Source of the DNA: an uncultured Planctomycetia bacterium | GTDB lineage: Bacteria; Omnitrophota; Gorgyraeia; 2-02-FULL-51-18; JAGOUK01 | NCBI GenBank assembly: GCA_964430735.1 | Contig: CAYSFB010000002.1 | Coordinates: 158,027-222,026 of the forward strand | DNA length: 64,000 nt | Direction: 5' to 3' | In this document: positions 2,715 through 55,550 of the stretch, piece after piece | How the letters are laid out: the number at the start of each line of letters is the position of its first letter | Position numbering within the stretch: position 1 is the first letter of the stretch | Notes under the pieces: model-generated | Told to the model about the DNA's origin: nothing | Database searches by the model: none | The model's input: only the letters and a program-made list of their open reading frames with translations | Made by a program: the position numbers and the translations under genes

Positions 2715-3269
2715 TCATGGATGCAGTATAGCAAGCGGAGGGTTTTTTTGATCGCGGTCGGACAGGATGTACGCGCATCCCGGATCGGGCCACTTCACGC
2801 CGATGAACGGATCGTTCCAAGCGATGCCGACCTCGTGTGCCGGCGAATAGTAGGCGCTCGTCTGATACAGGACGTCGGCACGGTCGCTCGTAACCAAAAA
2901 TCCGTGCGCGAATCCCGTCGGCACGTACAACATCTTCCGGTTCTCCGCCGAAAGGGTCTCGCCGAACCACTTGCCGTACGTCGGCGATCCCGCCCGCAGA
3001 TCGACCGCGACGTCGAAGATCTCGCCGACCACCACTTTCATGAGCTTGGCCTGCGCGAACGGTTCTTTCTGGTAATGGAGTCCGCGCAGAGTCCCGCGAA
3101 CGGATGAGCTGTGGTTGTCCTGGACGAAACGGTGGGAAATCCCCTGGGCGGCGAACAGGTCCTCCCGGTACGTTTCCGCAAAAAAACCGCGCGCGTCTTC
3201 AAACGCGCGCGGTTCGATCACCGTCAGTCCCGATAAGAACGTCGGCCGGAAGATCATCGTCTGAATCAA
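2715..3269 (-). CDS. rmlC: dTDP-4-dehydrorhamnose 3,5-epimerase
   Basis: 184 aa. Cupin-fold RmlC signatures are visible in the translation (RGLHYQ, KLMKVVVGEIFDVAVDLR, YVPTGFAHGF). Confidence 0.85.
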   Translation of the reverse strand: MIQTMIFRPTFLSGLTVIEPRAFEDARGFFAETYREDLFAAQGISHRFVQDNHSSSVRGTLRGLHYQKEPFAQAKLMKVVVGEIFDVAVDLRAGSPTYGKWFGETLSAENRKMLYVPTGFAHGFLVTSDRADVLYQTSAYYSPAHEVGIAWNDPFIGVKWPDPGCAYILSDRDQKNPPLAILHP

Positions 3270-3276
3270 GCCGGTC

Positions 3277-5631: not shown

Positions 5632-5757
5632 CCGAATCCCCTGAATAGCCGGTTTAATAACGCTGAAAAAGTCTCTGTGGACGATTTGACAAATCGACAA
5701 ATTACCGAACGATTATAGTTCCCCCGGAGGCCGATGACAAGGTGAATTATGGAAAAA

Positions 5758-42600: not shown

Positions 42601-45600
42601 TCTTGATAATCGGGACGGGGCTCTGATTCAGGCTGATTGAGCAGCATGTCTTCAACAGTCTCGCTCCCAAGATATTGATGATCCATCAACAGGTTATCCC
42701 ATTCCCGCAAGACAATCCCCGCTTCGGCCCTTAGCCGGGGCGACTGCTGAAGAAGCTTTTGGTCTATGACGAACTTTTCAAACTGAGTTTTGACAGGAAC
42801 AAACGGGTCGCCTTCCCGGGGCCGGCTCATCTGATTGATCTCGTAGAAGTCCAGACCGTAAATGACGGTCCCGGCAAATACCCGATAAAACCCAATCCAA
42901 TCTGGATCCGAGTTTTTTCCAGTATTCTTGACCATCAGCCACACAAGCAAGGAATATCCAATTTCGCCGAAGTCACCGCCCTCCAATTCAATCTCGTACT
43001 GAAGGGACATGAATAAATCGCTCAGCGCTTCAAAATACTCCTTGGTATCGGGATGTGCGATATGCTGAACCTTTTCATCAAGAAACTCGAACATAAAACT
43101 TCCCAGCAGATCGATCAGCTGTTCATTATTGAGCCCGGCCAAATACTGGACTCTTCCCGACGTTATCTTTAAATATTTCTCATACCGTTTCGGAAGCGGA
43201 AACGGATTCATTTGCGGCTCCCGTTCATTCAGACGGCGAATGATATGGGCAGCATATTCACTCACCTCTAATTGCACAGCATCCGTTGAATCTGGGAATG
43301 AAATAAAAACTTTTTCCGTCTTCGCCAACCGCGCGCCGGCATCGAGATTTCTCATAGCGTCGATCTCTTGCAAAGCTAGATCGATGTTATCGCAAGCATA
43401 TTTGAGCTGGTGCCATCTGAAGTCAGGGAGCTCCTGCCAATTGGGGGCATCGGCACTCAGTTGTGTTGGGATCGCCGACAATTTTTCTCGAATGTAGTAA
43501 ATGCCTGGCGGAACCGTCCGGCTGTCACCCTGAAAGTGAGCATTGCTCCTGACAATACGGATCGCCTCCGGAAGAATCACGCGTAATGCCTGCTCGACGG
43601 TGCTAGAGAACTGCTTATTGGGGTAGGCATATCCAGCATCATAATCCAAACCTATTTGTACTTGAATCTGCTCGAGCCTGGGCAACAAATTGTTTAATGC
43701 GACTCCCATCGCTCCTTGTTGCGCCATCTGCGCACCGGAAGAGCCGCGCTCGTCCAGGGTGGCTGGGATTTCGGGACGAACCTGATCGGCGATGGGGCCC
43801 TGCTCGCTGGCGATGTTCTGCGTGCCGTCGTCGGCAGCCAAGCGTGCGCCAAGCTGTTGAAAAAAATCGTTTTGAGAAAATGGAATTACGTCGTTTTCGG
43901 CCGCCACCAACAGGACATTATTTCCGTTATCGCGCAATTCAAGCCGCAGGACGTCAGGAAACATTCTCGGCCTGTATTGCGTAAGATTTCGGGTGTAAGT
44001 AATACGTTCTCCCGGATCCAGCGGAATGCGGAATATAAATTGACGGTCCGACCGGTCGGGATACGCCTTCAGTTCGTCTCCGTTGAACGAATACGGCTTG
44101 ACCAGCAGATAAAGGACCCTTGCTTTGGCATCCAAGACGGTTTTATCAACCAGAACCTTGTTTTGAGGATAGGTGCTTCTGTCGTTTGCTCTGAACGCGT
44201 TTTTAAAAAGCCGGTCGATGGCAGCACCGACCTCTTCTTGCAGGCCCGAGGACGCCGCCTGCTTTTTGACCTCATCGGCCGCGGCGCCGTCGATCGCGGC
44301 ACGGATGGCTTGGGCGATCAAGACGGATCGGACGACCATTCCGGGAACCGCGGAGTCCACCGAACTCGCAAAATTAATGGCCCCGACGGGATAGACCCGC
44401 GGATCGATGCCGCTCGACAGGTTGTCCGGACCCAGTTCAAACTCGGCGGCGACGACCGGGTTATCGCCCTTCCTTAATTTGAGCATCCTGCCTGCGATGA
44501 GCGCCTGATTGACGGGATCCTTGCTCCTCAAGGAATCGCGATCGTATCCGGTCGCCAAAATGATCGGGCCGTCCACGGTCGTGGATTCCGAACGATCCCT
44601 GGAGCCAAGCGGTATGATCTTGGTCCGGACGCGCGGGTTCGTGTCCGATGGGGTGATCTCGACGGTCTCGAGCTTGACGGCCTTGGTGTCGAACGGCGCT
44701 CCGAGAGCATGGAGCACGACGCGGCCGTTTCGGATCCCCCGCTCAATCGCGGAAAATGTATCGGGGGTGATCGTCGTCCCGTAATCCCGTTTCCATTCTT
44801 CAATGCTGGTGTCGCCGGCCTGGCGGTCCGTGATGAGCCGCTGCGCGGACTCGACGCCGGCATGTCCTGCCGGAACCTGCAGTTGTCCGGGCTTAAGCAG
44901 CCCTACCGTATAGAGATGAACCGTAGCTTCGGGACGTGCGTCCAAAATTTCGGTAACCGCTTTGGCGGCGGCCTCGCCGCCCCCGACCACCGCAACCGAG
45001 ACCGGACCCGTGTACCCTTCCATGACCGTCCGGTACAGAGGCGTGCCCATCAGAGTCTCGGAAATGATGAGTTGAGGCAGGCGCGCGACGTCGATCTTGG
45101 AATCGGGGCTTCCGGGCTTGGCCTTGGATTTGCGCGCGAGCTCCAGCGACAATTGAATGAGACGGTCCGCGGCGGTCAACTCCTCGTGGGATGTCACCAG
45201 AACGTATTCGTTTTTATTCCGCTGGACAAAGTCCTTGAGCCCGGTCGGCATCCGCATGTGCTCTGACCGCCTGCCGGTCATCCCGGTTGCGGGGACAAGC
45301 GTGCGGGCCTTGATGAGATGGCCTTGCGAGGTCCTGATCCAGTACAGGCCGTCGTTCTTTTTCTCGATCGAAGCGACGTCCGCCCCTTCAACGACGATTC
45401 CGCCCCGGTCCTGGATCATGCCGGCAGCGTGGGAAAGATATTGAAAAAATTCGTTGCGTGCCAAAGGCGACTGAACGTCCTTCGGGTCGGCCGCATTCTT
45501 CGGCTGCGTCGAAGCGAATTGGCGCGAAGCGGCGCGTCCGACAACATCGCGCGCGCGGATTCCGCGCTCACGGTAAACGGCCAGCTGTGTCTCAAGCGCC

Positions 45601-48600
45601 GCCGCCTGGACGAGGTCCTTGCCTGACTTGCCCGCTCGCACAAGCGAGCTCTGCTCCGCATTGGTCCGCATCCAGTGAGTGTCGTGCGCCTTCGCGTCCG
45701 AAAAACCGCCTCCCACATAATCGCTCACGATCACGGTCTTAAGCTTGGCGTCCACCGCGTGCAGTCCCGCGGATAAGCCCGCAGGTCCCGCGCCGATCAC
45801 GGCCACGTCGGCAACGTCATCCCCCCAGCGGGCGTACTCGATCCGGCTCAAGTCCTGGGGCGTGTGAAGAAACCGGCGGGTCCTCAAAATCCCGTCCGCC
45901 ATCAAAAAAGGGCTCTCCGATTGCTGCGCCAGAAGCGCATATTCCTTATCTGTCACCACACGCGTCCCGGTCGCCTCATCCGCCGACCGCTCCTCGTCTG
46001 ACGCCAGCCGCGCGCCGTTCAAGTAATCGAATATTTCCCCGTTTGCGGCTTCGACCTTATTGATGGCCGCTTCTAATCTTGTGGTAGACGCCTGCGGGTA
46101 GTCCACTTTCGAAGCTTTGCTCATTTGAAAAAGCATGGCGTGAGCTTCCCTGCTGCCTTTAATCAGGCTATCCAGGCGCTTTTTCAGCTTCTCAAGCTCC
46201 AACAGCGAATGAATATCATCGTTCCGATTGACCCACCGAATTATCTTTTGGAGCTGCAACACGAGCGGTTTGATGAGGACGTTGGCGTTGAATGACTGCG
46301 GGTTCTCGGTTACACCCGGTTGATTCAGGGTGATTTTATACCCCTCAAGAAGCTTGCCGGCTTCCGAGTATTCGGCCTCAGCAGAAGTCAGTTTGGACAG
46401 AACCGCGGATTTAATGTCTTCCGAAGCGCTCCCCTGCTCCGCCAGCTGCGCGCCGGCGCCGATCTGGTCCCGCACCCGTACGGCGTGGCGCAAGGCTTCC
46501 CTCAAAGAAACTTCAGCTGTCATGTATTCGGACGCGATTCCAGCTCCGAATTCGGGCCCGTCGGGAGCGCTCATGATGGTTTTCTGGACTTGTTTCAGCA
46601 GCGCGGCGTTCCTCTCGACCGTGGCGATCACCGCATCGATGTTCCGGCGCACCGCATCGGCCACCGACGCCTCGTCCAGGCTGCCTTCCGGCAGCCACTC
46701 GCGGACCGATGCGTCCAGAGCGCGCAATTCCTGGGTAGGAGACAGAGACTGGACGCTGCCTTCGAACGGCATGACAAAACTCAAATTCGGAAGATCGGGA
46801 GCGGCCTTCAGCGCTTCGCCGACCTGGTTCCGCACCTGACGGACCCCCGCCTCTAGCCGGGCGTCCGCCAGCCGCGCGCCGGACAGTTTGAAGTCGAGGT
46901 TCCGGATGAAGAGGCCCCAGGCGAGCTGGGCGGCGGCTTCGGCGTTCTCGTCCTTGCCCGTATAGACTTCGCCCAGGTGAGCAAGCTCAACAGCCCTGGT
47001 TCTGAAGAGAGCCTCCGATAACTGGATGGTCCCTTGATTCTGAGCGTACGATTCCAAAAATGCCATAAGCTGCTCAGCGATTCCGTTCACAAGGGGATTA
47101 TCGGATCTGGACTCGCTCGAGTTTTCCGCTATCTGCCGCTTTGTTTTAACGGCCGTGTCCCTCATCTCGGCGATCGTGACCTCCACGCGCTTGATCTGCG
47201 CCAGACGGGCACCGGACGACTGGACCCGGGTGACCTTGGCTCCGGAGGCTTCGACCAGGGATTTCATCGCGTCGGACTGGGATTTGGGAACCCAGAACTT
47301 GAGGACGCGGTCGGTCACGGGCTCTTCCGTACCGATGTTGGAGACCGAGAAAAGGACATCCGAGTTGGCTTCCAAGGGTTCCAGACGGATGATCCAGCGG
47401 TTCCGGGCCTCGTGATGGATATAGCGCAGTTTGTATTCGTATTTTTTTCCGTTCGTTTCGAGCGTAACGCGGCGGTCTGCATGAACCGGGATCTCAATTT
47501 TCTGGAGAGGCAGGTCCGCACCCCCGTCACGAACGGCGATTCCGGCGCCGGGCATCAGATGGGCGACGACGGCCTTCCTGGAGGACTCCACATCCACCTC
47601 AACCCCGCCCCGTACTTCGCGGGCAGCCAGACGGGCACCGCCAGTCTGAAGACGGATCTTATTAAGGACGTTCTTGAGATGAGATACCCCCTCATAGTCA
47701 GATCCGGGATAATGGGCCAGGATATCTATTGCAAGTAGCCAGATTTGCTCTCGCAGCTTCTTGGAGCTGCGAACATCCGTCCAGCGGTCCAGCACTTTCG
47801 ATATGGATCCCATTTCATATGAAACCGCAATAGCTGTTCCTCTTCCTGAGGTCGTCACATAATTAGACATCCACCTCTTCCTCAAGAGAGCCTTGTAAAG
47901 TTCAAGTATGTGAATTTTGTTGGTGGTTTTTTTGGCCCGGCCTAGAGCTTCGATAGCCTGCCCTCCGTACAGCGGGCTCTTCAGATACTTTGTCAGGATA
48001 TCTATAACTTCTTTCCTGTCGGGTCCAATGGCTGCGGCGGCCTCAATGGCTGCCTTCCGCACATCAGGCTCCACATTCCAGCCGTCAATGATCTTGATCA
48101 AGCTCGGCAGCGCCTTATCCGCCCGGCGAGAGTAGGATGCGATCTCTTCCAGGTCATTTATCATCGACTGATGAACACTACGGTCGAAGTCAGAATGATG
48201 AAGTCCGTCCTTCACTTTGCTTTCGAGAGAATTTACCAGATCTTTCGGCGCGGATTTTACTGCCATCCGCGCGCCGGCATTGGAGCCGCGTTCGTCCATA
48301 GTGGTGGGTGGGACTTCGGGGCGGACCTGATCGGCGATGGGGCCCTGCTCGCTGGCCAAATTGCCGGGGCGATCGCCTTCCTGAATAGCCAACCGGGCCG
48401 CCGCCACGAGGGCTTCCTGCATCACGGGCGTCGTGCGGACGAAGTAGGGGTCGCTGATATTGCGCGCGGAGACTGGAACACGGGCGCTAAAAGCCGGCTG
48501 AATATGAGCGGGGCCCTTTAACAGGATCCGCTCATACCGGGCAAAGTCCGTCTCGTGATAGACGTTCGGGATGATCGAAACATACGAGATTCCGCGGGAC

Positions 48601-50036
48601 TTAAAAAGTTCCTTGAGATGCTTCGCGTGGAAGCCGCCGGTCACGAGGATGGCGGTCCTCATCTCTTTTTCGGCGATCCTGGAGGAGAGATTCTTCACGA
48701 AGGCCTGGTCGCGGTCGAAGGAGCTCTCGTAAAACGCGCGGGCGTCCTGAACGGCCTGGGTCAAAAACGGCTCGCTGCGCAGGGCGTTGTCGTAGTGCTT
48801 CTTGAGTTCGAGGATCTTTTTATTGATGAAGCCGGTCTGAATCTGCACGTCGATGAGTTCCGGACGGGCCTGGATGTGAAGGTACTCGTCAGGGCCGATC
48901 TGGAGCGAAAGGAGCTTCTTTTCAAGTTCGATGCCGCGGCTCAGGAGAACCAACGCCGTCTGATCGGACGTCGTCGCGAGCGTTTTAAAGAGAAGGTCTT
49001 CGAGCTCATCGATTTCTCTCAGAGCCTTGTCGGCCTTGAGAGAATGGGACGCTTGGATGTAGGCGATGTATTTGAAAAGTTCGGGATAACGGCGGCCGGC
49101 GTCGGAACCGGCGAGTTTTTCTTCCAAATAAAGGAAAAAGGTCCGGGTGTCCTCCGCGGAAGCGCGGTTCACCTTTTGAAGCGGCTTCTTAAGGGAAGCG
49201 ATCTCCTGCCGATCGGCTTCCGGAAGCGTGCGAATCGCGGCTTCTTCCTGAAGGGACGCGGCGGCAAAGTCGATTGAGGATTCCTTGAATTGAAGATCTT
49301 TTAAGGTTTTAAGTTCGGAAAAAAGAGAAAGGTCGATTCCGGTTTCGCGGGCCGCCGCATCCAGCAGCGCAAAATACTGGGTGAGCCCGATTTCCTGCGA
49401 CTCGTATTGCGCCTTGGCGCGGTCGAGTTTTTTCAACGCGTCGGAATAAAAAACGTCCTTCATCGCCGCTGTCGAGCGGTCGATCCGGTCGAGCAATGCG
49501 AGCGCTTTTTCGCGGCTTGCCGCCGCCTTACGGTACGCCTCAAGCGCCTTGTCATAAAGAGGCTTGTCCTCGACGCCCCACAGCGTGAACGGACGGTTCG
49601 ACGCCAAATTCGCCAACTCGCTCCCCTTCACCAGTCCCTTGTTCAGGAAGTTCTCCGCCGCGCCGACCAGCGCTTCCCGGGACAGGGAGTCGCGCAAAAA
49701 CGCGATCGACAGATCCCCGCTCTCGCCTTCCACAAAGACATGCGTGACCGGCTCTTTTTCGAGAATGCGGTCGATGGCTTTGGCGAGGTTCTTTTGGCCG
49801 GAAGGATTGGTGTGCGCGTCCTGGATCAAAATGATTTTTGGGGCCGCGGCTTCGCCGCGATGGGAATCTTCGACGGTGCCGACCGAGGCCGGCAACTCAA
49901 ATGAGACGATGGGGTGGGTCAGGTTCTGGATGAGCGCGGCAGCTTCGGGTGCTGCAAGAGCGGCTTCCTGCGTGCACATAAGAAAAGTCAACAAGAACGC
50001 GACAGGACGCAAAACAAAAGCGCGAGAAGCCTGCAT
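36639..50036 (-). CDS. giant secreted multidomain protein (4465 aa), paralog of the 5758..19614 gene
   Basis: Uninterrupted 13.4-kb ORF. ATG at 50036 with an AAGGAG ribosome-binding site. Signal peptide. N-terminal domain homologous to giant 1 (ILIQDAHTNPSGQ / LVTGGFHAKHLKEL). FAD Rossmann motifs (VIGAGPAGLSAG and VVGGGEAAAKA) near 45.0-45.9 kb. Aldose-1-epimerase-like domain (GGNIAGW...HGYFDK...FGHHPWF) near 39.3-40.3 kb. Eleven or more GARLA copies plus GARMA, GAQLA and GAQMA variants. Confidence 0.85.
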   Translation of the reverse strand: MQASRAFVLRPVAFLLTFLMCTQEAALAAPEAAALIQNLTHPIVSFELPASVGTVEDSHRGEAAAPKIILIQDAHTNPSGQKNLAKAIDRILEKEPVTHVFVEGESGDLSIAFLRDSLSREALVGAAENFLNKGLVKGSELANLASNRPFTLWGVEDKPLYDKALEAYRKAAASREKALALLDRIDRSTAAMKDVFYSDALKKLDRAKAQYESQEIGLTQYFALLDAAARETGIDLSLFSELKTLKDLQFKESSIDFAAASLQEEAAIRTLPEADRQEIASLKKPLQKVNRASAEDTRTFFLYLEEKLAGSDAGRRYPELFKYIAYIQASHSLKADKALREIDELEDLLFKTLATTSDQTALVLLSRGIELEKKLLSLQIGPDEYLHIQARPELIDVQIQTGFINKKILELKKHYDNALRSEPFLTQAVQDARAFYESSFDRDQAFVKNLSSRIAEKEMRTAILVTGGFHAKHLKELFKSRGISYVSIIPNVYHETDFARYERILLKGPAHIQPAFSARVPVSARNISDPYFVRTTPVMQEALVAAARLAIQEGDRPGNLASEQGPIADQVRPEVPPTTMDERGSNAGARMAVKSAPKDLVNSLESKVKDGLHHSDFDRSVHQSMINDLEEIASYSRRADKALPSLIKIIDGWNVEPDVRKAAIEAAAAIGPDRKEVIDILTKYLKSPLYGGQAIEALGRAKKTTNKIHILELYKALLRKRWMSNYVTTSGRGTAIAVSYEMGSISKVLDRWTDVRSSKKLREQIWLLAIDILAHYPGSDYEGVSHLKNVLNKIRLQTGGARLAAREVRGGVEVDVESSRKAVVAHLMPGAGIAVRDGGADLPLQKIEIPVHADRRVTLETNGKKYEYKLRYIHHEARNRWIIRLEPLEANSDVLFSVSNIGTEEPVTDRVLKFWVPKSQSDAMKSLVEASGAKVTRVQSSGARLAQIKRVEVTIAEMRDTAVKTKRQIAENSSESRSDNPLVNGIAEQLMAFLESYAQNQGTIQLSEALFRTRAVELAHLGEVYTGKDENAEAAAQLAWGLFIRNLDFKLSGARLADARLEAGVRQVRNQVGEALKAAPDLPNLSFVMPFEGSVQSLSPTQELRALDASVREWLPEGSLDEASVADAVRRNIDAVIATVERNAALLKQVQKTIMSAPDGPEFGAGIASEYMTAEVSLREALRHAVRVRDQIGAGAQLAEQGSASEDIKSAVLSKLTSAEAEYSEAGKLLEGYKITLNQPGVTENPQSFNANVLIKPLVLQLQKIIRWVNRNDDIHSLLELEKLKKRLDSLIKGSREAHAMLFQMSKASKVDYPQASTTRLEAAINKVEAANGEIFDYLNGARLASDEERSADEATGTRVVTDKEYALLAQQSESPFLMADGILRTRRFLHTPQDLSRIEYARWGDDVADVAVIGAGPAGLSAGLHAVDAKLKTVIVSDYVGGGFSDAKAHDTHWMRTNAEQSSLVRAGKSGKDLVQAAALETQLAVYRERGIRARDVVGRAASRQFASTQPKNAADPKDVQSPLARNEFFQYLSHAAGMIQDRGGIVVEGADVASIEKKNDGLYWIRTSQGHLIKARTLVPATGMTGRRSEHMRMPTGLKDFVQRNKNEYVLVTSHEELTAADRLIQLSLELARKSKAKPGSPDSKIDVARLPQLIISETLMGTPLYRTVMEGYTGPVSVAVVGGGEAAAKAVTEILDARPEATVHLYTVGLLKPGQLQVPAGHAGVESAQRLITDRQAGDTSIEEWKRDYGTTITPDTFSAIERGIRNGRVVLHALGAPFDTKAVKLETVEITPSDTNPRVRTKIIPLGSRDRSESTTVDGPIILATGYDRDSLRSKDPVNQALIAGRMLKLRKGDNPVVAAEFELGPDNLSSGIDPRVYPVGAINFASSVDSAVPGMVVRSVLIAQAIRAAIDGAAADEVKKQAASSGLQEEVGAAIDRLFKNAFRANDRSTYPQNKVLVDKTVLDAKARVLYLLVKPYSFNGDELKAYPDRSDRQFIFRIPLDPGERITYTRNLTQYRPRMFPDVLRLELRDNGNNVLLVAAENDVIPFSQNDFFQQLGARLAADDGTQNIASEQGPIADQVRPEIPATLDERGSSGAQMAQQGAMGVALNNLLPRLEQIQVQIGLDYDAGYAYPNKQFSSTVEQALRVILPEAIRIVRSNAHFQGDSRTVPPGIYYIREKLSAIPTQLSADAPNWQELPDFRWHQLKYACDNIDLALQEIDAMRNLDAGARLAKTEKVFISFPDSTDAVQLEVSEYAAHIIRRLNEREPQMNPFPLPKRYEKYLKITSGRVQYLAGLNNEQLIDLLGSFMFEFLDEKVQHIAHPDTKEYFEALSDLFMSLQYEIELEGGDFGEIGYSLLVWLMVKNTGKNSDPDWIGFYRVFAGTVIYGLDFYEINQMSRPREGDPFVPVKTQFEKFVIDQKLLQQSPRLRAEAGIVLREWDNLLMDHQYLGSETVEDMLLNQPESEPRPDYQEIIEGLKESIRPSTESESAVWSSAIDSLVDLSHHHQHVLLSEDLDASMSDIEMGAGGGMSAMDHMQLKTMERMGESGRKIWILTWDKYLKYVWMYLQSAESGIQWDDYAKIVSGYVNDDGVTQSLPDLLGLPRTDRAELRNVLSYLQWFRLLKQARSRTGSKILFFLASEEEHAVNDNLLEIYANEKQKILWVGQGKIPVLDVLLTSGDAYVTHLAYAADHWHSEGFMRATAGISTAVWNLTPDFEKKSADRSVLVITDGSSRAGQFIRTHSPPIKNNFMKKRIPDSILLAFLGGDDDSDDNDRVVPDAPDPFLSQDPNSEDAVRPAGPRHVPSTGARLAKAKAVQTKNITITGDERILLVIDKGPKKGREVMVMRYDKKRKALVVDASLGIAVSSKQVDSKTPSFLKVTKLPYWDDAQPSVMVRKDPVSFYDGEGRVVTISYKRLSKPKGSLSVRIVYPSGILMPVKQTEEEWDPFDGIPDDAFTNPKYAGRFGARLAGMLKAPAYPPNHVLARLTGIEAERLLLAVIQAQGVGTIGQATDLQSLITRPWPIRITSENSKLFTVAGDGDKKPFTIGPDDQLFVTPAREMIYVPKSPWDKKAMWSVVEKYFETAGEPLTAQQMLSGARLADRKPIDFEAEMLGALEPGQNRDWIKRYETVILPRIDRYYVQRSSVVTLSAEEAAAHRRFIEGLTWLDVLALGSLPASVDSLGRTAYMTLVRDWENINEAAAASLWGTDRTAANVHLAQVLVVRRHLFGATSAHTHRFEAALRDRGGWKQLEWAASAFRLLVQIARERNIHPRERQNVTVRLVDGYPVYKLTAADGKGELQVSALGGNIAGWKTAGVDGALRQRIWFEGQDENGEAVRLIKDASQPFGKDNPLMRGGAPFMAPWVGRRSITPDIKRNRHIRYVPAAQGPDQFAIHGYFDKMRWEYAGHSSSDDATSITLVADTAQDPIFEFKDAQYKGSGRVYLTYTLGKDGSLNVKTRIENTGGVSFQMGFGHHPWFLMLNPTQVEARIPARGVRETIPSGLSTLKVIPVTGTAQDYLAAPRKLEKEKIDATFTDLESADGVTVSEFTNPQTGEKFVLTQKGYSNVHLFVPQNPTVFPADIVAVEPTTSRAGTSDKVIAPGGSVTAEWTAEFGPAAARLADFDGAAEALKIAQVALNREEQLVDQGAADLQKKNQIQVQIDAVRQTLGKARAAAEGLARSFFDPQESRVLSYLSLLETAKSQTDHLRSDANDLDGNTYALPAAQKLLGGLIDQANLYLEHLREAQRVEKTTVTLDRSKFRLVAEDDRPAVGSMIAADPTVQDAPMWSVVDSDDHGNLILASYDMEGGLSTDIFSQQVSELHRQDRWIHPNNQPLEPAADMLRELQTLGIRTVYNLPQAFGAPGLHTLQALLQMHRHRMPRGYEGGDRFEDILPAWIAQSREEWGEFDAVYIDPRISGWDLAAAFRLFLDRKPVHERLREVGSHKAMIGVYASDKSHTLNIRPMPAIDAAVTAAQIAESLQDLKSAGGARMAQLTMASALAVFVTQHQATPQLANFELFDSAAGASDKKLKMVQVSPKGQEQSMLQIMSWEDGTWVIARNEGIHIISSIAWDSKEKKLKVDHLPADAKEPLSSLSGKTYDAPEDPILGLGLTEKNGKLILNLWIADSLRRQIAADTKLNYINQLMDDQSGVAINLTTPAPSKTGARLSGASLQTEAIEGFVRGAAPALRGEEEAEFDMAEFDASSGIFTLLTRILAMRNGAIRWKFADALAWNTLAYAGDAKGSDGAALMPAIQKPWNAQMARQALQKDLIPNLKSTAGQPVILHADGAILRGLNEEQMQRVFRSVQKMAKVLGVYVQFEGQYGDLSAEGIRGLDNPIHAHLAAVENEAALEAGDTGMLAEVKAGRHIPFTLAVLTEAELARLRGVRNGVALWRESRGSQMLFRRAPTQAAGLAMAEVDPSDPAQMLLLREYRASAFLSVTDLFELFQMADDAIDQSA
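43721..43810. repeat. intragenic direct repeat, copy A (pairs with 48281..48356)
   Basis: An ~85-bp segment including CTGATCGGCGATGGGGCCCTGCTCGCTGGC recurs with few mismatches. It encodes the duplicated peptide ASEQGPIADQVRPE preceded by a GARMA or GAQMA motif. Confidence 0.7.
48281..48356. repeat. intragenic direct repeat, copy B (pairs with 43721..43810)
   Basis: See copy A. Confidence 0.7.
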
Positions 50037-51124: not shown

Positions 51125-51209
51125 TGGTGCAGGAGGAGGGATTTGAACCCTCAATCCGTAAGGAACATGATCCTTAGTCATGCGCGTATGCCAATTCCGC
51201 CACTCCTGC
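51125..51209 (-). tRNA. tRNA-Leu (type II, long variable arm), apparent anticodon AAG
   Basis: Minus-strand sequence GCAGGAGTGGCGGAATTGGCATACGCGCATGACTAAGGATCATGTTCCTTACGGATTGAGGGTTCAAATCCCTCCTCCTGCACCA. Acceptor 7 bp. Anticodon stem CATGA/TCATG with loop CTAAGGA (U33, G37). 13-nt variable arm. T-arm GAGGG TTCAAAT CCCTC. Encoded CCA present. Confidence 0.75.
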
Positions 51210-51354
51210 GAAGAACCTTAAAACTGCCGGTCCGGGCGGGACCAAGAGGCGATATTATAGCCCAAAACGGCCGGAATCAAGACTTTCATCTTTCAAAAAA
51301 ATCCGGGCCGGCCGCTGCCTTGACTTTGATGGAATCGGACGGAGAATAGACCGC

Positions 51355-52272
51355 ATGAAGCCTTCCGATCCGCTCCTCCAGGCGCTCCAATCAATTCCCG
51401 CGCCGACGCTCGCCGCCGCTCTTGATGCCGCGTCCTGCGCGATCGTGATTGCCGATGCCCGCAAATCGGATTTTCCGCTCATCTATGTCAGCCGGGCCTT
51501 CGAAACGATCACCGGTTATACGGCCCGGGAATCGATCGGCCGGAATTGCCGATTCCTCCAGGGACGCGACCGGAACCAGCCCGAACTGAAGATCATTCAC
51601 AAGGCGATCCAAAGTCGGCGGGCCTGTCAGGTGGTGCTTGCCAATTATCGGAAAGACGGAACTCGTTTTTGGAATGAGCTGCGCCTGGCCCCCGTCTTTG
51701 ACGAAGCTCGACGCCTGACCCATTACGTCGGAATCCAGACCGACGTGACCTTCCAGCGCGAGGCCGAGACCGCGCTCAAGGAACATCAGAAGGATCTGGA
51801 ACGGCTTGTGCGGGAAAGGACTGACGAGCTCGACCGCAAAAATGCCGCGCTCACCGAAGTGTTGGGACGCCTGGAGCTTGAGAAGCGCTCCCTCGAGCGC
51901 CGGCTGACAGCCAATGTGGACCGCCTCATCCTTCCGCTCATGAAAAAAATCGGGCGGGGTTCCGGCCCCGAAGGCCGTCCGGCGCTCGCCGCGCTGGAGG
52001 CCTCCCTGCAGGAACTCACATCTCCGTTCGGCGAAGGCTTGAGCCGTCCTCTGTACCGGCTTTCGGCCCGCGAAATCGAGATCTGCGGGTTTATCCGGCG
52101 GGGATTGGGGACCAAAGAAATCGCGCAGCTGCTCAAGTCATCCGAAGCGACGGTCGAGAACCAGCGCAACTCGATCCGGAAGAAGCTCGGCATCTCGCGC
52201 AAGTCGGTCAACCTTTCGGTCTTTCTCCGCGGATTCGCCGATCCGGGCGCCTCTCAGAACACCTATTTATGA
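51355..52272 (+). CDS. LOV-domain blue-light photoreceptor fused to LuxR-type HTH (EL222-like light-regulated transcription factor)
   Basis: Canonical LOV flavin-cysteine motif GRNCRFLQG plus FWNELRLAPV and NYRKDG. ~100-aa coiled-coil linker. C-terminal LuxR HTH (LSAREIEICGFIRRGLGTKEIAQLLKSSEATVENQRNSIRKKLGI). Confidence 0.85.
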   Translation: MKPSDPLLQALQSIPAPTLAAALDAASCAIVIADARKSDFPLIYVSRAFETITGYTARESIGRNCRFLQGRDRNQPELKIIHKAIQSRRACQVVLANYRKDGTRFWNELRLAPVFDEARRLTHYVGIQTDVTFQREAETALKEHQKDLERLVRERTDELDRKNAALTEVLGRLELEKRSLERRLTANVDRLILPLMKKIGRGSGPEGRPALAALEASLQELTSPFGEGLSRPLYRLSAREIEICGFIRRGLGTKEIAQLLKSSEATVENQRNSIRKKLGISRKSVNLSVFLRGFADPGASQNTYL

Positions 52273-52351
52273 TAGGTGTTTTATAGGTATTTTGAGGCGG
52301 TTGCCGTTGCGCCTTCTCCGCTGTATTCTCCTCTTATCGGAGGAAGCGGAT

Positions 52352-53179
52352 GTGAGCACCTATGGATGGGTTCGAAAAGGACTGGGGATCGGATGCGCCG
52401 GAGGGATCTTTGCCCTCACCGGACTGGCGCTCATGCTCGAACTTCCCCAAAGCTTCGCCGTTCTCAATCGGGCATCGGGTGCAGCCGCCTGTTTCGCCGT
52501 TTCCGCCGCCCTGGTCCTGATCTCCGCTCTCTACACCCTCCCTTTCGACATCCTGAGCCACGCCGCCGGCCGCCGGTTCGGTAGAGTCCGGCACGGATTC
52601 CGCACCTTCGGAGCGGCCTGGATCCGCGGGGTCGCACTGCAGGCGCTGCTCCTGCCCGCGTTTATGACCCTGATTCACCTGTCGGGCCGCTTCGCGGGGG
52701 ATGTCGGCGCCATGACCGCTTTTACGGCCATTCTGATTTATATGTACCTGTCGCGGACGGAGCTCTCTCGCTTCATCGAGGGGTATCAATTCCGCATCTT
52801 CACATTTAAAAATATCGGCGCGCTCAAAAAGGGCCCTGAGCGTGCACGGCTCATCGTCACGATCCTGTGGAACCAATCCGCCTTTGCCTGCGCGCTGCTC
52901 GTCCCTGGGGCCGGTACCGAGACCGTCGGTCCGCTCGTCGTAACGGTCTTCGCGTTCACCTGCTTTTCACTGCTGGGATGGCTCTTTTTACCCTGGATCG
53001 GCCGCCGTCACGACCTCGCCACGGCGCTCCTGGCGCTGGACCTTTCATGGGCCGGCTCGAACCTGATCACGCGCTCCGTCTGCACCAATGTCGGCATCCC
53101 CCGCAAATGGCTGGCCTGCGAGCCGTCGGAATTTTTCGAGAATAAGAACACGTCCGCCTTCCGCCGGATCGCGCAATGA
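52352..53179 (+). CDS. hypothetical polytopic membrane protein
   Basis: Multiple hydrophobic helices. GTG at 52352 preceded by GGAGGA; the track ORF starts at a TTG at 52292. Stop overlaps the next gene's ATG (ATGA). Confidence 0.5.
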   Translation: MSTYGWVRKGLGIGCAGGIFALTGLALMLELPQSFAVLNRASGAAACFAVSAALVLISALYTLPFDILSHAAGRRFGRVRHGFRTFGAAWIRGVALQALLLPAFMTLIHLSGRFAGDVGAMTAFTAILIYMYLSRTELSRFIEGYQFRIFTFKNIGALKKGPERARLIVTILWNQSAFACALLVPGAGTETVGPLVVTVFAFTCFSLLGWLFLPWIGRRHDLATALLALDLSWAGSNLITRSVCTNVGIPRKWLACEPSEFFENKNTSAFRRIAQ

Positions 53180-54648
53180 CTCCCCTTCGCCGCGTCCTCG
53201 TCACCGGTTCGACGGGCTATATCGGCGGCCGCCTGGTGCCGGCTCTGCTCGAGCGCGGCCTGCGCGTGCGCGCGCTCGTCCGATCCGAAAAAAAAGCGCG
53301 CACCCGTTCGTGGGCGTCCCATCCCGGACTCGAATTGGTCGGCGGGAACGTGCTGGACAAAGATTCACTCACCGCCGCCTGCCGCGGCTGCGAAGCCGTG
53401 TATTACCTGGTGCATTCGATGCTGCCCGGAACGCGCGATTACCGGAGTTCCGATCTGGAGGCGGCTCAAATCATGAGAGATGCGGCGGCGGCCGCGGGCG
53501 TCCAACGCATCATCTATCTGGGCGGCCTCGGCGAAGACCGGCCGGACTTGAGCCGGCATCTCCGCTCCCGGCGCGAGGTCGAACAGGTGCTCGCTTCGGG
53601 GACGGTCCCGGTGACCGTGCTGCGCGCCGCAATGATCATCGGCTCCGGCAGCGCGTCGTTCGAAATTCTGCGGTATCTGGTCGACCGGCTGCCGTTCATG
53701 ATCACGCCCAAGTGGGTCAGCACGCCCTGCCAGCCGATCGCGATCCGAAACGTCCTCGAATATCTCGCGTCGTGCCTCGACCGGCCCGAAACGGCCGGTC
53801 AAAAGTTCGACATCGGAGGCCCCGACCGGCTCACCTATCTGGACCTCATGCGCATCTACGCCGAGGAAGCCGGCCTGCCGCGCCGGCGAATCATTCCCGT
53901 TCCGGTGCTCACTCCGCGCCTGAGCTCGTATTGGATCCATTTGGTCACGCCCGTGCCCTCCTCCATCGCGCGTCCGCTCGCCGAAGGACTCAAGAATCCG
54001 GTCATCTGCCGCGAAACCCGGATCCGCTCGATCATCCCGACGGAGCTCATTTCGGTGCGCGAAGCGATCCGCCTGGCCCTGCGCAAGACGCTTGCGGACG
54101 AGGTCGTGACCCGCTGGACCGACGCGGGCGGATCGGCCGGCGTCGAGGCGATCGCTCCGGGAGATCCCGAATGGGCCGGAGGAACCGTGCTCAAGGACGA
54201 GCGGTCCGTCATCACCGCCGCGGACCCAAAAAAATTATGGGGAGTTGTGGAATCCATCGGCGGCGACAGCGGCTGGTATCACGCGGATTTTTTATGGCGG
54301 ATACGCGGCGCCATCGACCGGCTTTTTGGCGGTGTGGGATTGCGGCGCGGACGGCGAAGCGCGCACGAGCTGCATCCCGGCGACGCGCTGGACTTCTGGC
54401 GCGTGATCGAATGCGACCGTGAGCGCCGGCTCACCCTCCGGGCCGAAATGAAGCTGCCCGGCGAAGCGGTGCTTCAGTTCGAGCTCACCCCTTTGTCCGG
54501 CGGGCGCGTCCGGCTCGATCAGCGGGCTCTATTCAAACCCAAGGGTCTTTGGGGGATCCTGTACTGGCTCGGGGTGATGCCGCTCCACGCGTATGTGTTC
54601 GGCGGCATGCTTCAGCGGATCGTCCGACGCGCCCAAGCCGTTCCGTAG
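53176..54648 (+). CDS. NAD(P)-binding SDR/NmrA-like epimerase-dehydratase family protein with C-terminal DUF2867-like domain
   Basis: Rossmann VLVTGSTGYIGGRLV. Extended ~180-aa C-terminal domain (WYHADFLWRIRGAIDRL...). Domain naming is from recall. Confidence 0.6.
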   Translation: MTPLRRVLVTGSTGYIGGRLVPALLERGLRVRALVRSEKKARTRSWASHPGLELVGGNVLDKDSLTAACRGCEAVYYLVHSMLPGTRDYRSSDLEAAQIMRDAAAAAGVQRIIYLGGLGEDRPDLSRHLRSRREVEQVLASGTVPVTVLRAAMIIGSGSASFEILRYLVDRLPFMITPKWVSTPCQPIAIRNVLEYLASCLDRPETAGQKFDIGGPDRLTYLDLMRIYAEEAGLPRRRIIPVPVLTPRLSSYWIHLVTPVPSSIARPLAEGLKNPVICRETRIRSIIPTELISVREAIRLALRKTLADEVVTRWTDAGGSAGVEAIAPGDPEWAGGTVLKDERSVITAADPKKLWGVVESIGGDSGWYHADFLWRIRGAIDRLFGGVGLRRGRRSAHELHPGDALDFWRVIECDRERRLTLRAEMKLPGEAVLQFELTPLSGGRVRLDQRALFKPKGLWGILYWLGVMPLHAYVFGGMLQRIVRRAQAVP

Positions 54649-54653
54649 GCCCC

Positions 54654-55550
54654 ATGAGACGACTGGGCTACCCCTGCATCAACCGTACGATCCATGCGCT
54701 GGCGGACCGGACGTTCCGGCTGGCCTCGTATTCGGATGAACGGCTCCTGGATACCGCACGCACCAATCTCGAGGCGCTGGAACGATTGGTGGTCTTTAAC
54801 GAGACGCACGATCTGCGGTTCGTTCGAATTTCATCCCAAACCGTGCCGTTTGCCTCCCACCCGGTCTGCCGGATCGATTGGCTGACGCCGCTCCGCCCGC
54901 TCCTCGAGCGCATCGGAACCCGGATGACCGACGCCGGAATGCGCGTATCGATGCACCCCGACCAGTTTGTTCTGATCAATTCACCCGACGACCGCATCGT
55001 CGCCGCAAGTCTGGCCGAGCTCGATTATCACGACCGGTTGCTCACGGCGATGGGTCTGGGCCGGGATGCCAAGATCCAGATTCATGTCGGCGGGGTTTAC
55101 GGAGACAAGGCGGCCGCGGTCGGAAGATTCATCGAGCGCTTCGGGACGCTGCCCGAGGGCGTCCGAAGACGGCTCGTCATCGAGAACGACGAACGGTTGT
55201 TTGGAGTCCAGGACTGCCTGCTGATCTCGGCGCAGACAGGCGTGCCGGTCCTGCTGGACACCTTTCACCACGAATTGAAGGATGACGGAATGACCACGCG
55301 CGAAGCGTTTGAAGCCTGCCGGGTCACCTGGAAGCGGGCGGACGGACTCCCGATGCTCGACTACAGTTCACAAAAACCGGGCGGAAGGTTCGGGGAACAC
55401 GCGCTCACGATCGACGCGAAACACTTCGCGCAGATCATGGCACGGCTTCAGGGATGCGGATTCGATGTTATTTTGGAGATCAAGGACAAGGAAAAGAGCG
55501 CGCTTACCGCGCGGGCGATCCTGGAGAGGATGCGGAAAGACGCGCCTTGA
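54654..55550 (+). CDS. uvdE: UV damage endonuclease UvdE
   Basis: MRRLGYPCIN start. TIM-barrel UvdE signatures: FRLASY, LRFVRISSQTVPFASHP, MHPDQFVLINSP, IQIHVGG, LVIENDERLF. ATG at 54654. Confidence 0.8.
   Translation: MRRLGYPCINRTIHALADRTFRLASYSDERLLDTARTNLEALERLVVFNETHDLRFVRISSQTVPFASHPVCRIDWLTPLRPLLERIGTRMTDAGMRVSMHPDQFVLINSPDDRIVAASLAELDYHDRLLTAMGLGRDAKIQIHVGGVYGDKAAAVGRFIERFGTLPEGVRRRLVIENDERLFGVQDCLLISAQTGVPVLLDTFHHELKDDGMTTREAFEACRVTWKRADGLPMLDYSSQKPGGRFGEHALTIDAKHFAQIMARLQGCGFDVILEIKDKEKSALTARAILERMRKDAP

Follow-up and report, generated by a model that had tools for sequence, protein, structure and literature searches.

Four genes lie on the same strand between positions 51355 and 55550 of the window, by which we mean the whole 64-kb stretch of DNA analysed. 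An independent public gene call returned the same four products, of 305, 275, 490, and 298 aa, in agreement with the reading frames of the initial annotation. The genes and the features identified within and between them are as follows.

51320–51347, + strand: the LOV-LuxR gene's own promoter, TTGACT-16 nt-GAGAAT (promoter scan)
51355–52272, + strand: LOV-LuxR one-component regulator, 305 aa (LOV domain, long helix, helical hairpin, GerE-HTH)
51400–51744, + strand: LOV core and N-cap, residues 16–130 (PAS_9, YtvA_fam, and short-LOV PDB matches)
51748–51960, + strand: single 71-residue helix, residues 132–202 (AlphaFold model and heptad analysis)
51976–52044, + strand: short helical hairpin joining the long helix to the HTH, residues 208–230 (part of the conserved output cassette)
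52060–52239, + strand: LuxR/GerE four-helix HTH, residues 236–295 (GerE match and model helices)
52258–52280, no strand: perfect palindrome AACACCTAT-ttatg-ATAGGTGTT, two inverted half-sites, predicted operator
52283–52288, + strand: third half-site ATAGGT, direct repeat of the right arm
52301–52329, + strand: predicted operator-dependent promoter, -35 TTGCCG (52301–52306), 17-nt spacer, -10 TATTCT (52324–52329)
52352–53179, + strand: first gene of the predicted regulated unit, a 275-aa polytopic membrane protein with several hydrophobic segments and no assigned function
53176–54648, + strand: second gene, an atypical NmrA/NDUFA9-like SDR fused to DUF2867, 490 aa (Pfam)
54654–55550, + strand: third gene, UV-damage endonuclease UvdE, 298 aa (PF03851, TIGR00629, 3tc3)

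Translation of bases 51538–51564 confirmed the LOV motif GRNCRFLQG, with the codon of the photoactive Cys65 at 51547–51549, and Pfam assigned residues 29–132 to PAS_9 (E-value 2.8e-20). The proposed C-terminal LuxR HTH was also recovered, as a GerE match at residues 236–283 (35 bits against a cut-off of 23.5), with helices at residues 238–248, 253–260, 264–277, and 287–295 of the predicted model. In all 34 family members aligned, N64, C65, R66, L68, Q69, N97, N107, and Q128 were invariant; the window protein carries His82 at the position occupied in most family members and in other LOV domains by the second phosphate-binding Arg. The invariant residues of the HTH in the same alignment were T266, E268, N269, Q270, R271, R275, K277, and L278, and the recognition-helix motif T-V-E-N-Q-R-N-x-I-R-K-K-L was nearly invariant across the family.

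The two domains had been described as separated by an unusual coiled-coil linker of about 100 aa. This region comprises the helix 132–202 (pLDDT 75–97 in the AlphaFold model) and the hairpin 208–230, and the heptad a/d core is clean only for approximately residues 149–191. The helix contains the invariant polar core residues T156 (in the E-R-T motif), N163, K177, and N187, as well as an invariant P194. Its length is strictly kept, with zero indels in the 34 family sequences, and in REC-linked relatives and the paralogue it differs by exactly seven residues, or one heptad. Nor is the linker an oddity of this protein: at a threshold of E ≤ 1e-30, the C-terminal 160 residues (helix, hairpin, and GerE) found matches in 3,926 representative clusters, in every case at the C-terminus, behind PAS, GAF, or REC sensors. 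The cassette is marked by the motifs E-R-T...K-N-x-A-L and N-V-D...P in the helix, followed by the hairpin and GerE, and its sampled carriers have PAS arrays, REC-PAS, GAF, or CHASE8-PAS sensors. A LOV signature was present in only one of the 150 best representatives; the light-sensing version is a rare specialisation, so far labelled in Omnitrophota only. LOV-LuxR is thus a LOV domain joined to the heptad helix of a widespread PAS/GAF/REC-GerE output cassette.

The idea that the LOV gene heads a single operon did not hold. This gene has its own promoter, which stops 7 nt 5′ of the ATG, so that its mRNA would be leaderless or nearly so; the same geometry is repeated in the related loci L001, L003, and L013. 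The predicted regulated unit is membrane protein–SDR/DUF2867–uvdE, with the LOV gene separately promoted, and read-through from the LOV-LuxR promoter into the operon may occur. A search for a LuxR-box palindrome had been suggested for 52273–52351 and for the region upstream of 51355. Neither the operator search nor a PWM scan of the window found a palindromic site of this kind upstream of 51355 or an operator at the gene's own promoter. At the 3′ side, a palindrome and a half-site were found at 52258–52288, partly inside the LOV gene, with the palindrome overlapping its final codons and TGA stop. The palindrome (I3 in the repeat finder; 9-nt arms, 100% identity) was the sole match in 64 kb at ≤3 mismatches, with 0.06 expected. 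The third half-site lies 11 bp from the right arm, centre to centre (direct repeat D1, period 11), and the -35 TTGCCG, part of a promoter of the sigma-70 type, starts exactly 12 nt past it.

Thirteen other loci carry the same operator-promoter next to a LOV-LuxR homologue, with protein identities ranging from ~45% to 82%. The composite element palindrome-N3-half-site-N12-TTGnnn-N17- -10 could be aligned without gaps over 17 sites from the 13 loci, each of which adjoins, or lies within ~1 kb of, a LOV-LuxR family member. The third half-site has an identical offset in the related sites, the geometry N12/TTGnnn/N17/(G/T)ATnnT is fixed in 16 of the 17, and alignment positions T45, T46, G47, A69, T70, and T73 vary little or not at all. 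With a PWM built without the window's own site, the window operator scored 54.8 bits versus 7.3 for the runner-up, an unrelated position. The palindrome arms are conserved in sequence and the 5-nt spacer varies freely, as is characteristic of DNA recognised by a protein. Transcription is placed by inference as starting near 52336; the half-site centres, at roughly -72, -61, and -50, are therefore estimates.

The membrane protein starts at a GTG codon, with the SD sequence GGAGGA (52339–52344) 7 nt before it. It matched no Pfam family above threshold, had sub-threshold similarity to Peptidase_M48_N, and lacked HExxH; its low-confidence model had no fold match. The family comprises only twelve clusters among 5.8 billion proteins; for six of them the longest contig equals in length that of a LOV-LuxR match, and five of these six were confirmed as the gene adjoining LOV-LuxR. 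The SDR/DUF2867 product matched NmrA/NAD_binding_10 and DUF2867 (E-value 1.3e-36) in Pfam; its similarity to PDB entries was limited to the SDR half, and the structure search found no solved relative of DUF2867. Of the regulator's partners it recurs most often, being downstream of the operator in 7 of the 14 loci. UvdE matched PF03851 (E-value 1.7e-59), TIGR00629 (175 bits; cut-off 124), and, over its full length, the solved UVDE 3tc3 (E-value 4e-72). The reported ATGA overlap at 53176, between the membrane-protein stop and the SDR/DUF2867 start, and the 5-nt gap before uvdE are both present, and uvdE is likely to be co-transcribed with the two genes upstream. The description of a mainly DNA-repair operon proved too narrow: the conserved core is membrane protein and SDR/DUF2867, whereas uvdE, an accessory member, occurs in two of five close loci and is missing from L001, L003, and L005. 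A GT2 glycosyltransferase closes the operon in three of the five close loci, those without uvdE. The same gene order, with uvdE after SDR/DUF2867, recurs in L013.

Judged from gene content, the predicted operator-controlled genes are repeatedly those of UV or photo-oxidative damage. Downstream of the operator are UvdE (window and L013), a photolyase (L007), the photolyase-related DPRP (L012), a spore-photoproduct-lyase-like (SPL-like) radical-SAM lyase (L011), DNA-alkylation repair (L006 and L015), and glutathione peroxidase (L007 and L010). L010 also has an amine oxidase, DUF1365/CMAS, a desaturase, and DUF1295, among them furan-fatty-acid-type lipid genes. Ferritin and rubrerythrin genes occur near LOV-LuxR loci.

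Taken together, these data make it reasonably probable that LOV-LuxR is a blue-light transcription factor that switches on the membrane protein–SDR/DUF2867–UvdE operon via the operator. The LOV domain would bind flavin and form a Cys65–flavin adduct in blue light. The protein would be a parallel dimer joined via the long heptad helix leaving the LOV core, and the light signal would travel along this helix, in the fashion of YtvA and YF1, and re-orient the GerE HTH domains at the two C-termini. The dimer is predicted to occupy the palindrome ACACCTAW-N5-WTAGGTGT, and a further subunit or dimer would take the third half-site ATAGGT one helical turn downstream. The half-sites lie directly against a promoter whose -35 (TTGCCG) is weak, which argues for activation rather than repression, the bound protein presumably recruiting RNA polymerase and switching on the tightly packed operon. 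EL222 acts as an activator from a site that overlaps the -35 or lies upstream of it, and as a repressor from one between the -35 and -10 (PMC5001607, PMC9614035). With the operon triggered by light, visible light would stand in for UV and photo-oxidative damage; with a light sensor fused to a DNA-binding domain beside the operator and a UV-repair operon, the host probably takes visible light as an advance signal of harm from the sun. The blue-light control of uvdE put forward earlier thus gains strong comparative support from the operator-promoter here and in 13 related loci and the recurrent photodamage genes, with a regulon wider than repair.

Binding to the operator, the dimeric state, and the light-on polarity are themselves predictions, and the polarity might be reversed, with a dark dimer binding and either activating or blocking the promoter until blue light releases it. 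YF1 is light-repressed, and linker length or register can invert the response of coiled-coil LOV proteins (PMC9614035); the sequence is compatible with either sign, and in L007 and L010 some operators extend over the region upstream of the LOV gene itself. We nevertheless regard this as unlikely, considering that UvdE, photolyase, the SPL-like lyase, glutathione peroxidase, and the furan-fatty-acid-type genes are required under illumination rather than in darkness and that an operator 5′ of a weak -35 is the arrangement expected of an activator (PMC5001607). Alternatively, the flavin-PAS domain might respond to redox state or oxygen instead of light, with the regulon serving against oxidative stress in general. 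Dark or anoxic habitats are home to many Omnitrophota, and life without light would suit such a sensor, as would glutathione peroxidase in the regulon and the nearby ferritin/rubrerythrin genes; EL222 is also modulated by flavin redox state (PMC11928941). However, redox PAS-flavin proteins need no adduct Cys, which is invariant here with the full GxNCRFLQ motif in 34/34 sequences, and photolyase, DPRP, the SPL-like lyase, and UvdE are specific for UV lesions, which makes a redox sensor improbable.

It is equally improbable that uvdE is a recent, independently expressed passenger and that the operator controls only the membrane protein and SDR/DUF2867. Its absence from three of five close operons and its 47-nt overlap with the convergent PEPCK gene, suggestive of recent rearrangement, fit this view. 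Against it stand the short gap in the window and the 4-nt overlap with the upstream gene in L013, the position directly after SDR/DUF2867 in two genomes, and the scans, which found no promoter-like site on this strand in 52352–54654 and no other operator anywhere in the window. That the palindrome is only the intrinsic terminator of the LOV gene, with the proximity of LOV-LuxR to uvdE carrying no regulatory meaning, appears very improbable. Its RNA does fold (-15.6 kcal/mol; z -3.3), a U-rich stretch follows it in the window, and several sites lie just 3′ of the stop codon of a same-strand upstream gene. Yet the arm sequence itself, beyond pairing, is kept across proteins of 45–80% identity, the third half-site repeats it, and the -35 and -10 follow at a constant distance. 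The relatives' sites have no U-tail, those of L010 and L014 fold no better than some of their own shuffles (45/200 and 6/200, respectively), and the full sites of L007, L010, L012, and L014 face divergent genes, with no upstream gene to terminate.

Like LOV-LuxR, EL222 of Erythrobacter litoralis (3p7n, 8a5r), a one-component blue-light DNA binder (PMC5001607, PMC9614035), begins with a LOV domain that carries the adduct Cys and ends with a LuxR/GerE HTH. The initial assignment to the EL222 architecture stands only as regards the order of the domains; in LOV domain and helix, LOV-LuxR instead resembles the coiled-coil dimeric class. EL222 has a short J-alpha, its dark LOV sheet caps the HTH, and light drives a monomer-to-dimer switch (PMC4844311), whereas LOV-LuxR has the 71-residue heptad helix and hairpin between its domains. 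The sequence match is confined to the LOV part (residues 15–133; E-value 4e-26), superposition on the whole model gives ~40 Å rmsd, and the three-half-site operator differs from that of EL222. The LOV core, N-cap, and J-alpha are best matched by solved photoactive proteins, namely YtvA and the Pseudomonas short LOV proteins PpSB1/2, PF5, and SBW25 (E-value ~1e-34; 1.2–2 Å over ~140 residues), and the top full-length Foldseek matches are the LOV-histidine kinases SB2F1 and YF1. By analogy, parallel coiled-coil signalling is expected, with a GerE HTH as output in place of the kinase, STAS, or absent effector of the coiled-coil LOV sensors. The same C-terminal 160 residues occur in uncharacterised PAS/GAF/REC-helix-hairpin-GerE regulators.

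Rhodobacter sigmaE-ChrR governs a light and singlet-oxygen regulon, and to our knowledge UvdE, the M48_N-like membrane protein, and fasciclin have not been described in this or the LitR/CarH regulons. The short LOV of Pseudomonas exerts its effect indirectly, through sequestration of the LitR repressor (PMC9758184), unlike LOV-LuxR, where sensor and DNA binder are fused. The experimentally determined light-induced Pseudomonas regulon includes phrB, an SDR, an FAD oxidoreductase, and ufaM, and the predicted LOV-LuxR target set is partly common with it; L007 and L010 share photolyase, short-chain dehydrogenase, FAD oxidoreductase, and UfaM/CMAS with this LitR/CarH and short-LOV regulon (PMC9758184). 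The regulator is different, namely MerR/B12 (LitR/CarH) or an ECF sigma factor (sigmaE-ChrR) versus LOV-GerE, and so is the operator. In fungi (Cryptococcus, Neurospora, and Phycomyces), the White Collar complex directly photo-induces UVE1 and thereby confers UV tolerance (PMC3764193). As proposed for LOV-LuxR and uvdE, a LOV-containing regulator controls a UvdE homologue with light as a proxy for UV; this control is experimentally proven for White Collar and predicted for LOV-LuxR. White Collar is, however, eukaryotic, has a GATA zinc-finger DNA-binding partner, and acts at an unrelated promoter, and the resemblance between the two systems is convergent, not homologous.

Four same-strand ORFs were found in the window where the initial annotation had placed them, and the public gene calls agree (305, 275, 490, and 298 aa). 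An ATGA overlap (53176-79) joins the genes of the membrane protein and the SDR protein, and a 5-nt gap (54649-53) precedes uvdE. The cluster is bordered upstream by a divergent tRNA gene with its own terminator and downstream by a convergent gene for GTP-PEPCK, the 3' end of which shares 47 nt with that of uvdE. The proposal that the LOV-LuxR gene heads a single cluster with uvdE holds with respect to same-strand adjacency; however, the regulator gene has its own promoter.

Features of the LOV-LuxR locus in the window
51125-51209 (-), tRNA-Leu(AAG), upstream border of the cluster
51320-51347 (+), LOV gene's own promoter, TTGACT-16-GAGAAT
51355-52272 (+), LOV-LuxR regulator gene
52258-52280, operator palindrome
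52283-52288, third half-site, ATAGGT
52301-06, -35 element of the membrane-protein operon, TTGCCG
52324-29, -10 element of the membrane-protein operon, TATTCT
52339-44, Shine-Dalgarno sequence of the membrane-protein gene, GGAGGA
52352-53179 (+), membrane-protein gene, start codon GTG
53176-54648 (+), SDR/DUF2867 gene
54654-55550 (+), uvdE
55504-55550, overlap of the 3' ends of uvdE (+) and the GTP-PEPCK gene (-), downstream border of the cluster

In the window and in the related loci L001, L003, and L013, the -10 element of the LOV gene ends 7-8 nt before the ATG, so that the regulator mRNA is probably leaderless or nearly so. Synteny between the window and its close relatives takes in tRNA-Leu, PEPCK, and a GH94 gene; tRNA-Leu(AAG) occupies the minus strand in L003 (7782-7864) and L013 (4320-4402) as well, and the equivalent position in L001 holds a plus-strand tRNA-Arg(ACG). 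A local rearrangement is indicated in L013, where the LOV gene is preceded, not followed, by PEPCK and a 301-aa ORF. In L003 the operon ends in a GT2 gene, and a 68-nt gap is found where the window has the uvdE/GTP-PEPCK overlap. The window also contains two giant minus-strand ORFs, at 36639-50036 (4,465 aa; FAD oxidoreductase domain at 1410-1618, aldose epimerase at 3393-3581, HEAT) and 5758-19614 (4,618 aa; PCMT methyltransferase at 1447-1616). The motif G-A-[RQ]-[LM]-[AS] ("GARLA") occurs 14 times in the former and 7 times in the latter, at irregular spacings of 38-978 aa with unrelated enzyme domains between successive copies, and resembles a marker of domain boundaries or processing sites in polyprotein-like giants.

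A search for the LuxR box expected at 52273-52351 recovered such an element starting slightly earlier, at 52258. In AACACCTAT-ttatg-ATAGGTGTT, which overlaps the stop codon of the LOV gene, two 9-bp arms form a perfect inverted repeat; the third half-site lies 11 bp from the right arm. With up to 3 mismatches allowed, the whole 64 kb contains a single match to the operator pattern (0.06 expected). All 13 further non-redundant loci examined carry the same element beside their LOV-LuxR gene or no more than about 1 kb from it. An alignment of 17 sites, taken from 13 of the 14 loci, runs over 80 nt essentially without gaps; L008, where the promoter geometry was unclear, was left out. Invariant or nearly invariant columns comprised both arms, the third half-site, a TTG exactly 12 nt on, and (G/T)ATnnT 17 nt later, and the 5-nt spacer of the palindrome varied freely. 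With a weight matrix derived from the other 11 loci, excluding the window, the window site scored 54.8 bits against 7.3 for the next-best unrelated position (background mean -42.8, sd 10.8). If transcription starts near 52336, as estimated, the half-site centers lie at approximately -72, -61, and -50. The second box looked for, upstream of 51355, did not appear in the matrix scan of the window; operators upstream of the LOV gene, candidate autoregulatory sites, exist in L007, L008, L010, and L012. A metagenome-wide scan for the exact pattern (CACCTAWNNNNNATAGGTGTNNNWTRGKT) returned one unrelated AT-rich 1.1-kb contig, with its palindrome between convergent genes, and added no regulon members.

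The genes that directly follow full operators form the following predicted regulon.

Genes linked to the predicted operator in the window and related loci
Window, L013, L001, L003, L005: membrane-protein operon directly under the operator
L007: adh_short, glutathione peroxidase, several more genes, DUF1722, SDR/DUF2867, photolyase; small signal-peptide ORF on the divergent strand, ~7747-7866 (-)
L010: glutathione peroxidase, SDR/DUF2867, amine oxidase, DUF1365/CMAS, desaturase, DUF1295, CMAS; small signal-peptide ORF on the divergent strand, ~6240-6340 (-)
L011: fasciclin (3127-3597), several genes, radical SAM, SPL-like lyase, B12-binding protein; second site upstream of MscS and the LOV gene
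L006, L009, L015: fasciclin (5579-6034, 5379-5852, and 5298-5771, respectively), LOV gene, SMR transporter; 42-43-aa ORFs after fasciclin; DNA-alkylation repair next in L006 and L015
L012: on the divergent strand, DUF4397, amine oxidase, photolyase-related DPRP
L014: fasciclin (9050-9514), adh_short; small signal-peptide ORF on the divergent strand, 7715-7873 (-)

Linked DNA-lesion repair genes were present in 7 of the 14 loci, as were SDR/DUF2867 genes (7/14), and in five the operator is followed first by a gene for a fasciclin-domain protein. Another recurrent occupant of the first position under the operator is a small ORF of 39-58 aa. The divergent-strand ORFs of this kind start with a signal-peptide-like segment, followed in two cases by Cys/Gly-rich sequence, and the one in L010 is absent from the gene calls of the public record.

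The assignment of the last gene of the window operon to uvdE was confirmed by PF03851 (E 1.7e-59), TIGR00629 (175.1 bits; cut-off 124.45), and the solved UVDE structures 3tc3 (E 4e-72 over residues 3-295) and 2j6v (E 1.3e-58). The third product of the cluster is an NmrA/NAD_binding_10 SDR fused to DUF2867, for which no solved relative was detected by sequence; the literature search returned nothing relevant on DUF2867, and none in a light context. The membrane protein has several hydrophobic segments and a sub-threshold similarity to Peptidase_M48_N, with no Pfam or NCBIfam family above threshold; AlphaFold modelled it with low confidence (pLDDT 64.5), and no PDB entry reached E < 0.1 in Foldseek. 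In the closest relative, L013 (80% identity), the operon encodes the membrane protein, an alpha/beta-hydrolase, SDR/DUF2867, UvdE, and GT2. The window operon contains neither the hydrolase nor GT2, both of which it appears to have lost. The window membrane protein also has a unique tail, CEPSEFFENKNTSAFRRIAQ (53120-53179); its orthologues in L013, L001, L003, and L005 end in CEAPRRD, ahead of the hydrolase gene. Thus, the window operon is probably a reduced derivative. UvdE is absent from the operons of L001, L003, and L005. In the window, uvdE lies on the same strand with coupled junctions, the weight matrix detects no second operator, and the gene order is repeated in L013; judged by gene content, uvdE is likely to be an accessory but recurrent operon member.

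In the regulator, re-reading of bases 51538-51564 gave GRNCRFLQG, so the LOV motif and its photoactive Cys are present as originally described. The protein combines a PAS fold (PAS_9/LOV, residues 29-132, E 2.8e-20, Pfam) with the GxNCRFLQ signature of LOV photosensors. Its layout of LOV, long linker, and GerE recurs in approximately 35 full-length homologues (283-343 aa, 43-82% identity), and all those carrying a taxonomic label belong to Candidatus Omnitrophota. Residues N64, C65, R66, L68, Q69, N97, N107, and Q128 are invariant in a 34-member alignment; R66, Q69, N97, N107, and Q128, together with the second phosphate-binding Arg position, presumably contact the flavin. At the latter position, where other LOV domains have an Arg that holds the flavin phosphate, most family members also have Arg (I-R-K-A-L), but the window protein has His82 (codon 51598-51600) and some relatives have H, K, A, or S; the substitution may affect cofactor affinity or photocycle kinetics. 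By sequence (E ~1e-34) and by fold, the LOV core with its N-cap and emerging helix is nearest to Pseudomonas short-LOV proteins and YtvA (Foldseek: 1.2-2 A over 130-145 residues to PpSB1/2, PF5, and SBW25), and the best full-length structural matches are the LOV/coiled-coil/kinase proteins SB2F1 and YF1.

The C-terminal LuxR HTH was likewise recovered (GerE, PF00196, residues 236-283; 35.0 bits, cut-off 23.5). The AlphaFold monomer model (mean pLDDT 84.5) comprises the LOV domain (16-130), a continuous helix (132-202), a hairpin (208-230), and a four-helix GerE domain (238-295). The coiled-coil linker of about 100 aa in the initial annotation is therefore real only in part, as a 71-residue helix with a heptad a/d core at residues 149-191 (V152, L159, L166, L170, I173, I180, V184, and L191), in which T156 of an E-R-T motif, N163, K177, and N187 are invariant polar residues at core positions. 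The helix carries no indel in 34/34 family sequences, and the protein is predicted to form a parallel homodimer through it. The N-cap and J-alpha flank the LOV core, and J-alpha continues as the heptad coiled coil, as in coiled-coil-coupled LOV proteins. The linker is not unusual to this protein: a profile of the C-terminal 160 residues matched 3,926 representative clusters (E <= 1e-30), always C-terminally and in proteins of at least 170 aa, and the members sampled carried PAS arrays or REC-PAS, GAF, or CHASE8-PAS sensors. A LOV signature was found in one of the 150 best representatives. The output cassette is 37% identical in P0121 and P0122, response-regulator paralogues of the REC/helix/hairpin/GerE type, which have a 7-residue (one-heptad) insertion directly after the E-R-T motif relative to the LOV protein. 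By its sequence, this difference appears to illustrate how the length of a signalling helix can vary in nature with its register preserved.

The most likely model for the window operon is one of activation by light. A coiled-coil dimer would sense blue light through a Cys65-flavin adduct; the signal would run along the helix to the GerE domains; the protein would bind the three-half-site operator and activate the adjacent weak -35 promoter, thereby switching on the membrane protein, SDR/DUF2867, and UvdE. We infer binding, activation, polarity, dimer state, and co-transcription alike. The regulator is read as an activator because of the operator position relative to the -35 element; EL222 activates from sites upstream of or overlapping the -35 element and represses from sites between -35 and -10 (PMC5001607, PMC9614035). 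The light-on reading follows from the nature of the target genes. Since the sign of the response is not fixed by sequence (PMC9614035), light might instead switch the promoter off, which we regard as a minor possibility. That the flavin-PAS domain senses redox rather than light is improbable, given that the Cys is invariant in the family and the targets are UV-specific. Expression of uvdE independently of the operator is unlikely in view of the tight gene junctions and the arrangement repeated in L013. The palindrome was also considered as a terminator: a hairpin could form, but the relatives have no U-tail, the sequence of the arms is conserved and not merely their pairing, and sites also face divergent genes; this explanation was rejected.

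The originally proposed blue-light control of UV repair is thus partly supported, and it is strengthened in its core by the conserved operator-promoter unit and the coherent predicted regulon, although uvdE is only an accessory part of it. On balance, we lean slightly towards a joint reading in which Omnitrophota have a regulon devoted to blue light, under a class of LOV transcription factor not described before. Its sensor would be a constitutive coiled-coil dimer, rather than a monomer-dimer switch of the EL222 type, and would read an operator of three half-sites that is joined to the target promoters at constant spacing. The regulon would couple UV-lesion repair (UvdE, photolyase, and SPL-like lyase) with membrane-lipid remodelling and bring in a set of lineage-specific proteins, made up of the M48_N-like membrane protein, SDR/DUF2867, fasciclin, and secreted peptides of small size.

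Light responses are not known for Omnitrophota, which are uncultivated bacteria of ultra-small size; the literature search turned up no paper on photolyase in Omnitrophota, nor any on LOV and LuxR in Omnitrophica. The predicted regulon indicates that some Omnitrophota, at least, may live in and respond to light. A natural LOV-HTH photoreceptor thereby gains a defined predicted operator and a predicted regulon, and DUF2867-SDR proteins and a membrane-protein family known only from these bacteria gain a testable light-damage context. Because the coiled-coil-coupled class is joined to a very widespread output cassette, it could explain signalling in thousands of PAS/GAF/REC-GerE regulators. The protein is also a possible new one-component optogenetic switch with a 31-bp operator; if the model is true, protein, operator, and promoter would together serve as a compact and orthogonal optogenetic part, ready for use.

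Among known systems, EL222, handled in the literature found as a structural and optogenetic model, shares with the window protein the order of LOV and LuxR-type HTH in one chain, and to that extent the "EL222 architecture" first assigned to the regulator stands. The structures differ, however: EL222 (~220 aa) has a short J-alpha, an HTH packed on the LOV beta-sheet, and a monomeric dark state, whereas the window protein has 305 aa with the 71-residue helix and hairpin. EL222 ranks 42-43 in Foldseek at an rmsd of 40-42 A, and its phmmer match is confined to the LOV part. An EL222-like mechanism was considered and rejected for these structural reasons; in its predicted mode of action the regulator is closer to sensors of the YtvA/YF1 type, here coupled to an output cassette of the generic PAS/GAF/REC-GerE kind. 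It also differs from systems of the LitR/CarH or sigmaE type, in which control lies with a MerR/B12-binding repressor or an ECF sigma/anti-sigma pair rather than with a LOV-GerE protein. In target-gene content, the predicted regulon (L007 and L010) partly overlaps the experimentally established light-induced regulon of Pseudomonas, which comprises phrB, an SDR, an FAD oxidoreductase, and ufaM (PMC9758184). In fungi, the LOV-containing White Collar complex has been shown experimentally to induce a UvdE homologue (PMC3764193). The logic of a LOV transcription factor acting on UvdE would be common to both, and the system predicted here would be a bacterial counterpart from unrelated parts; since the DNA-binding parts are unrelated, the likeness appears to be convergent.
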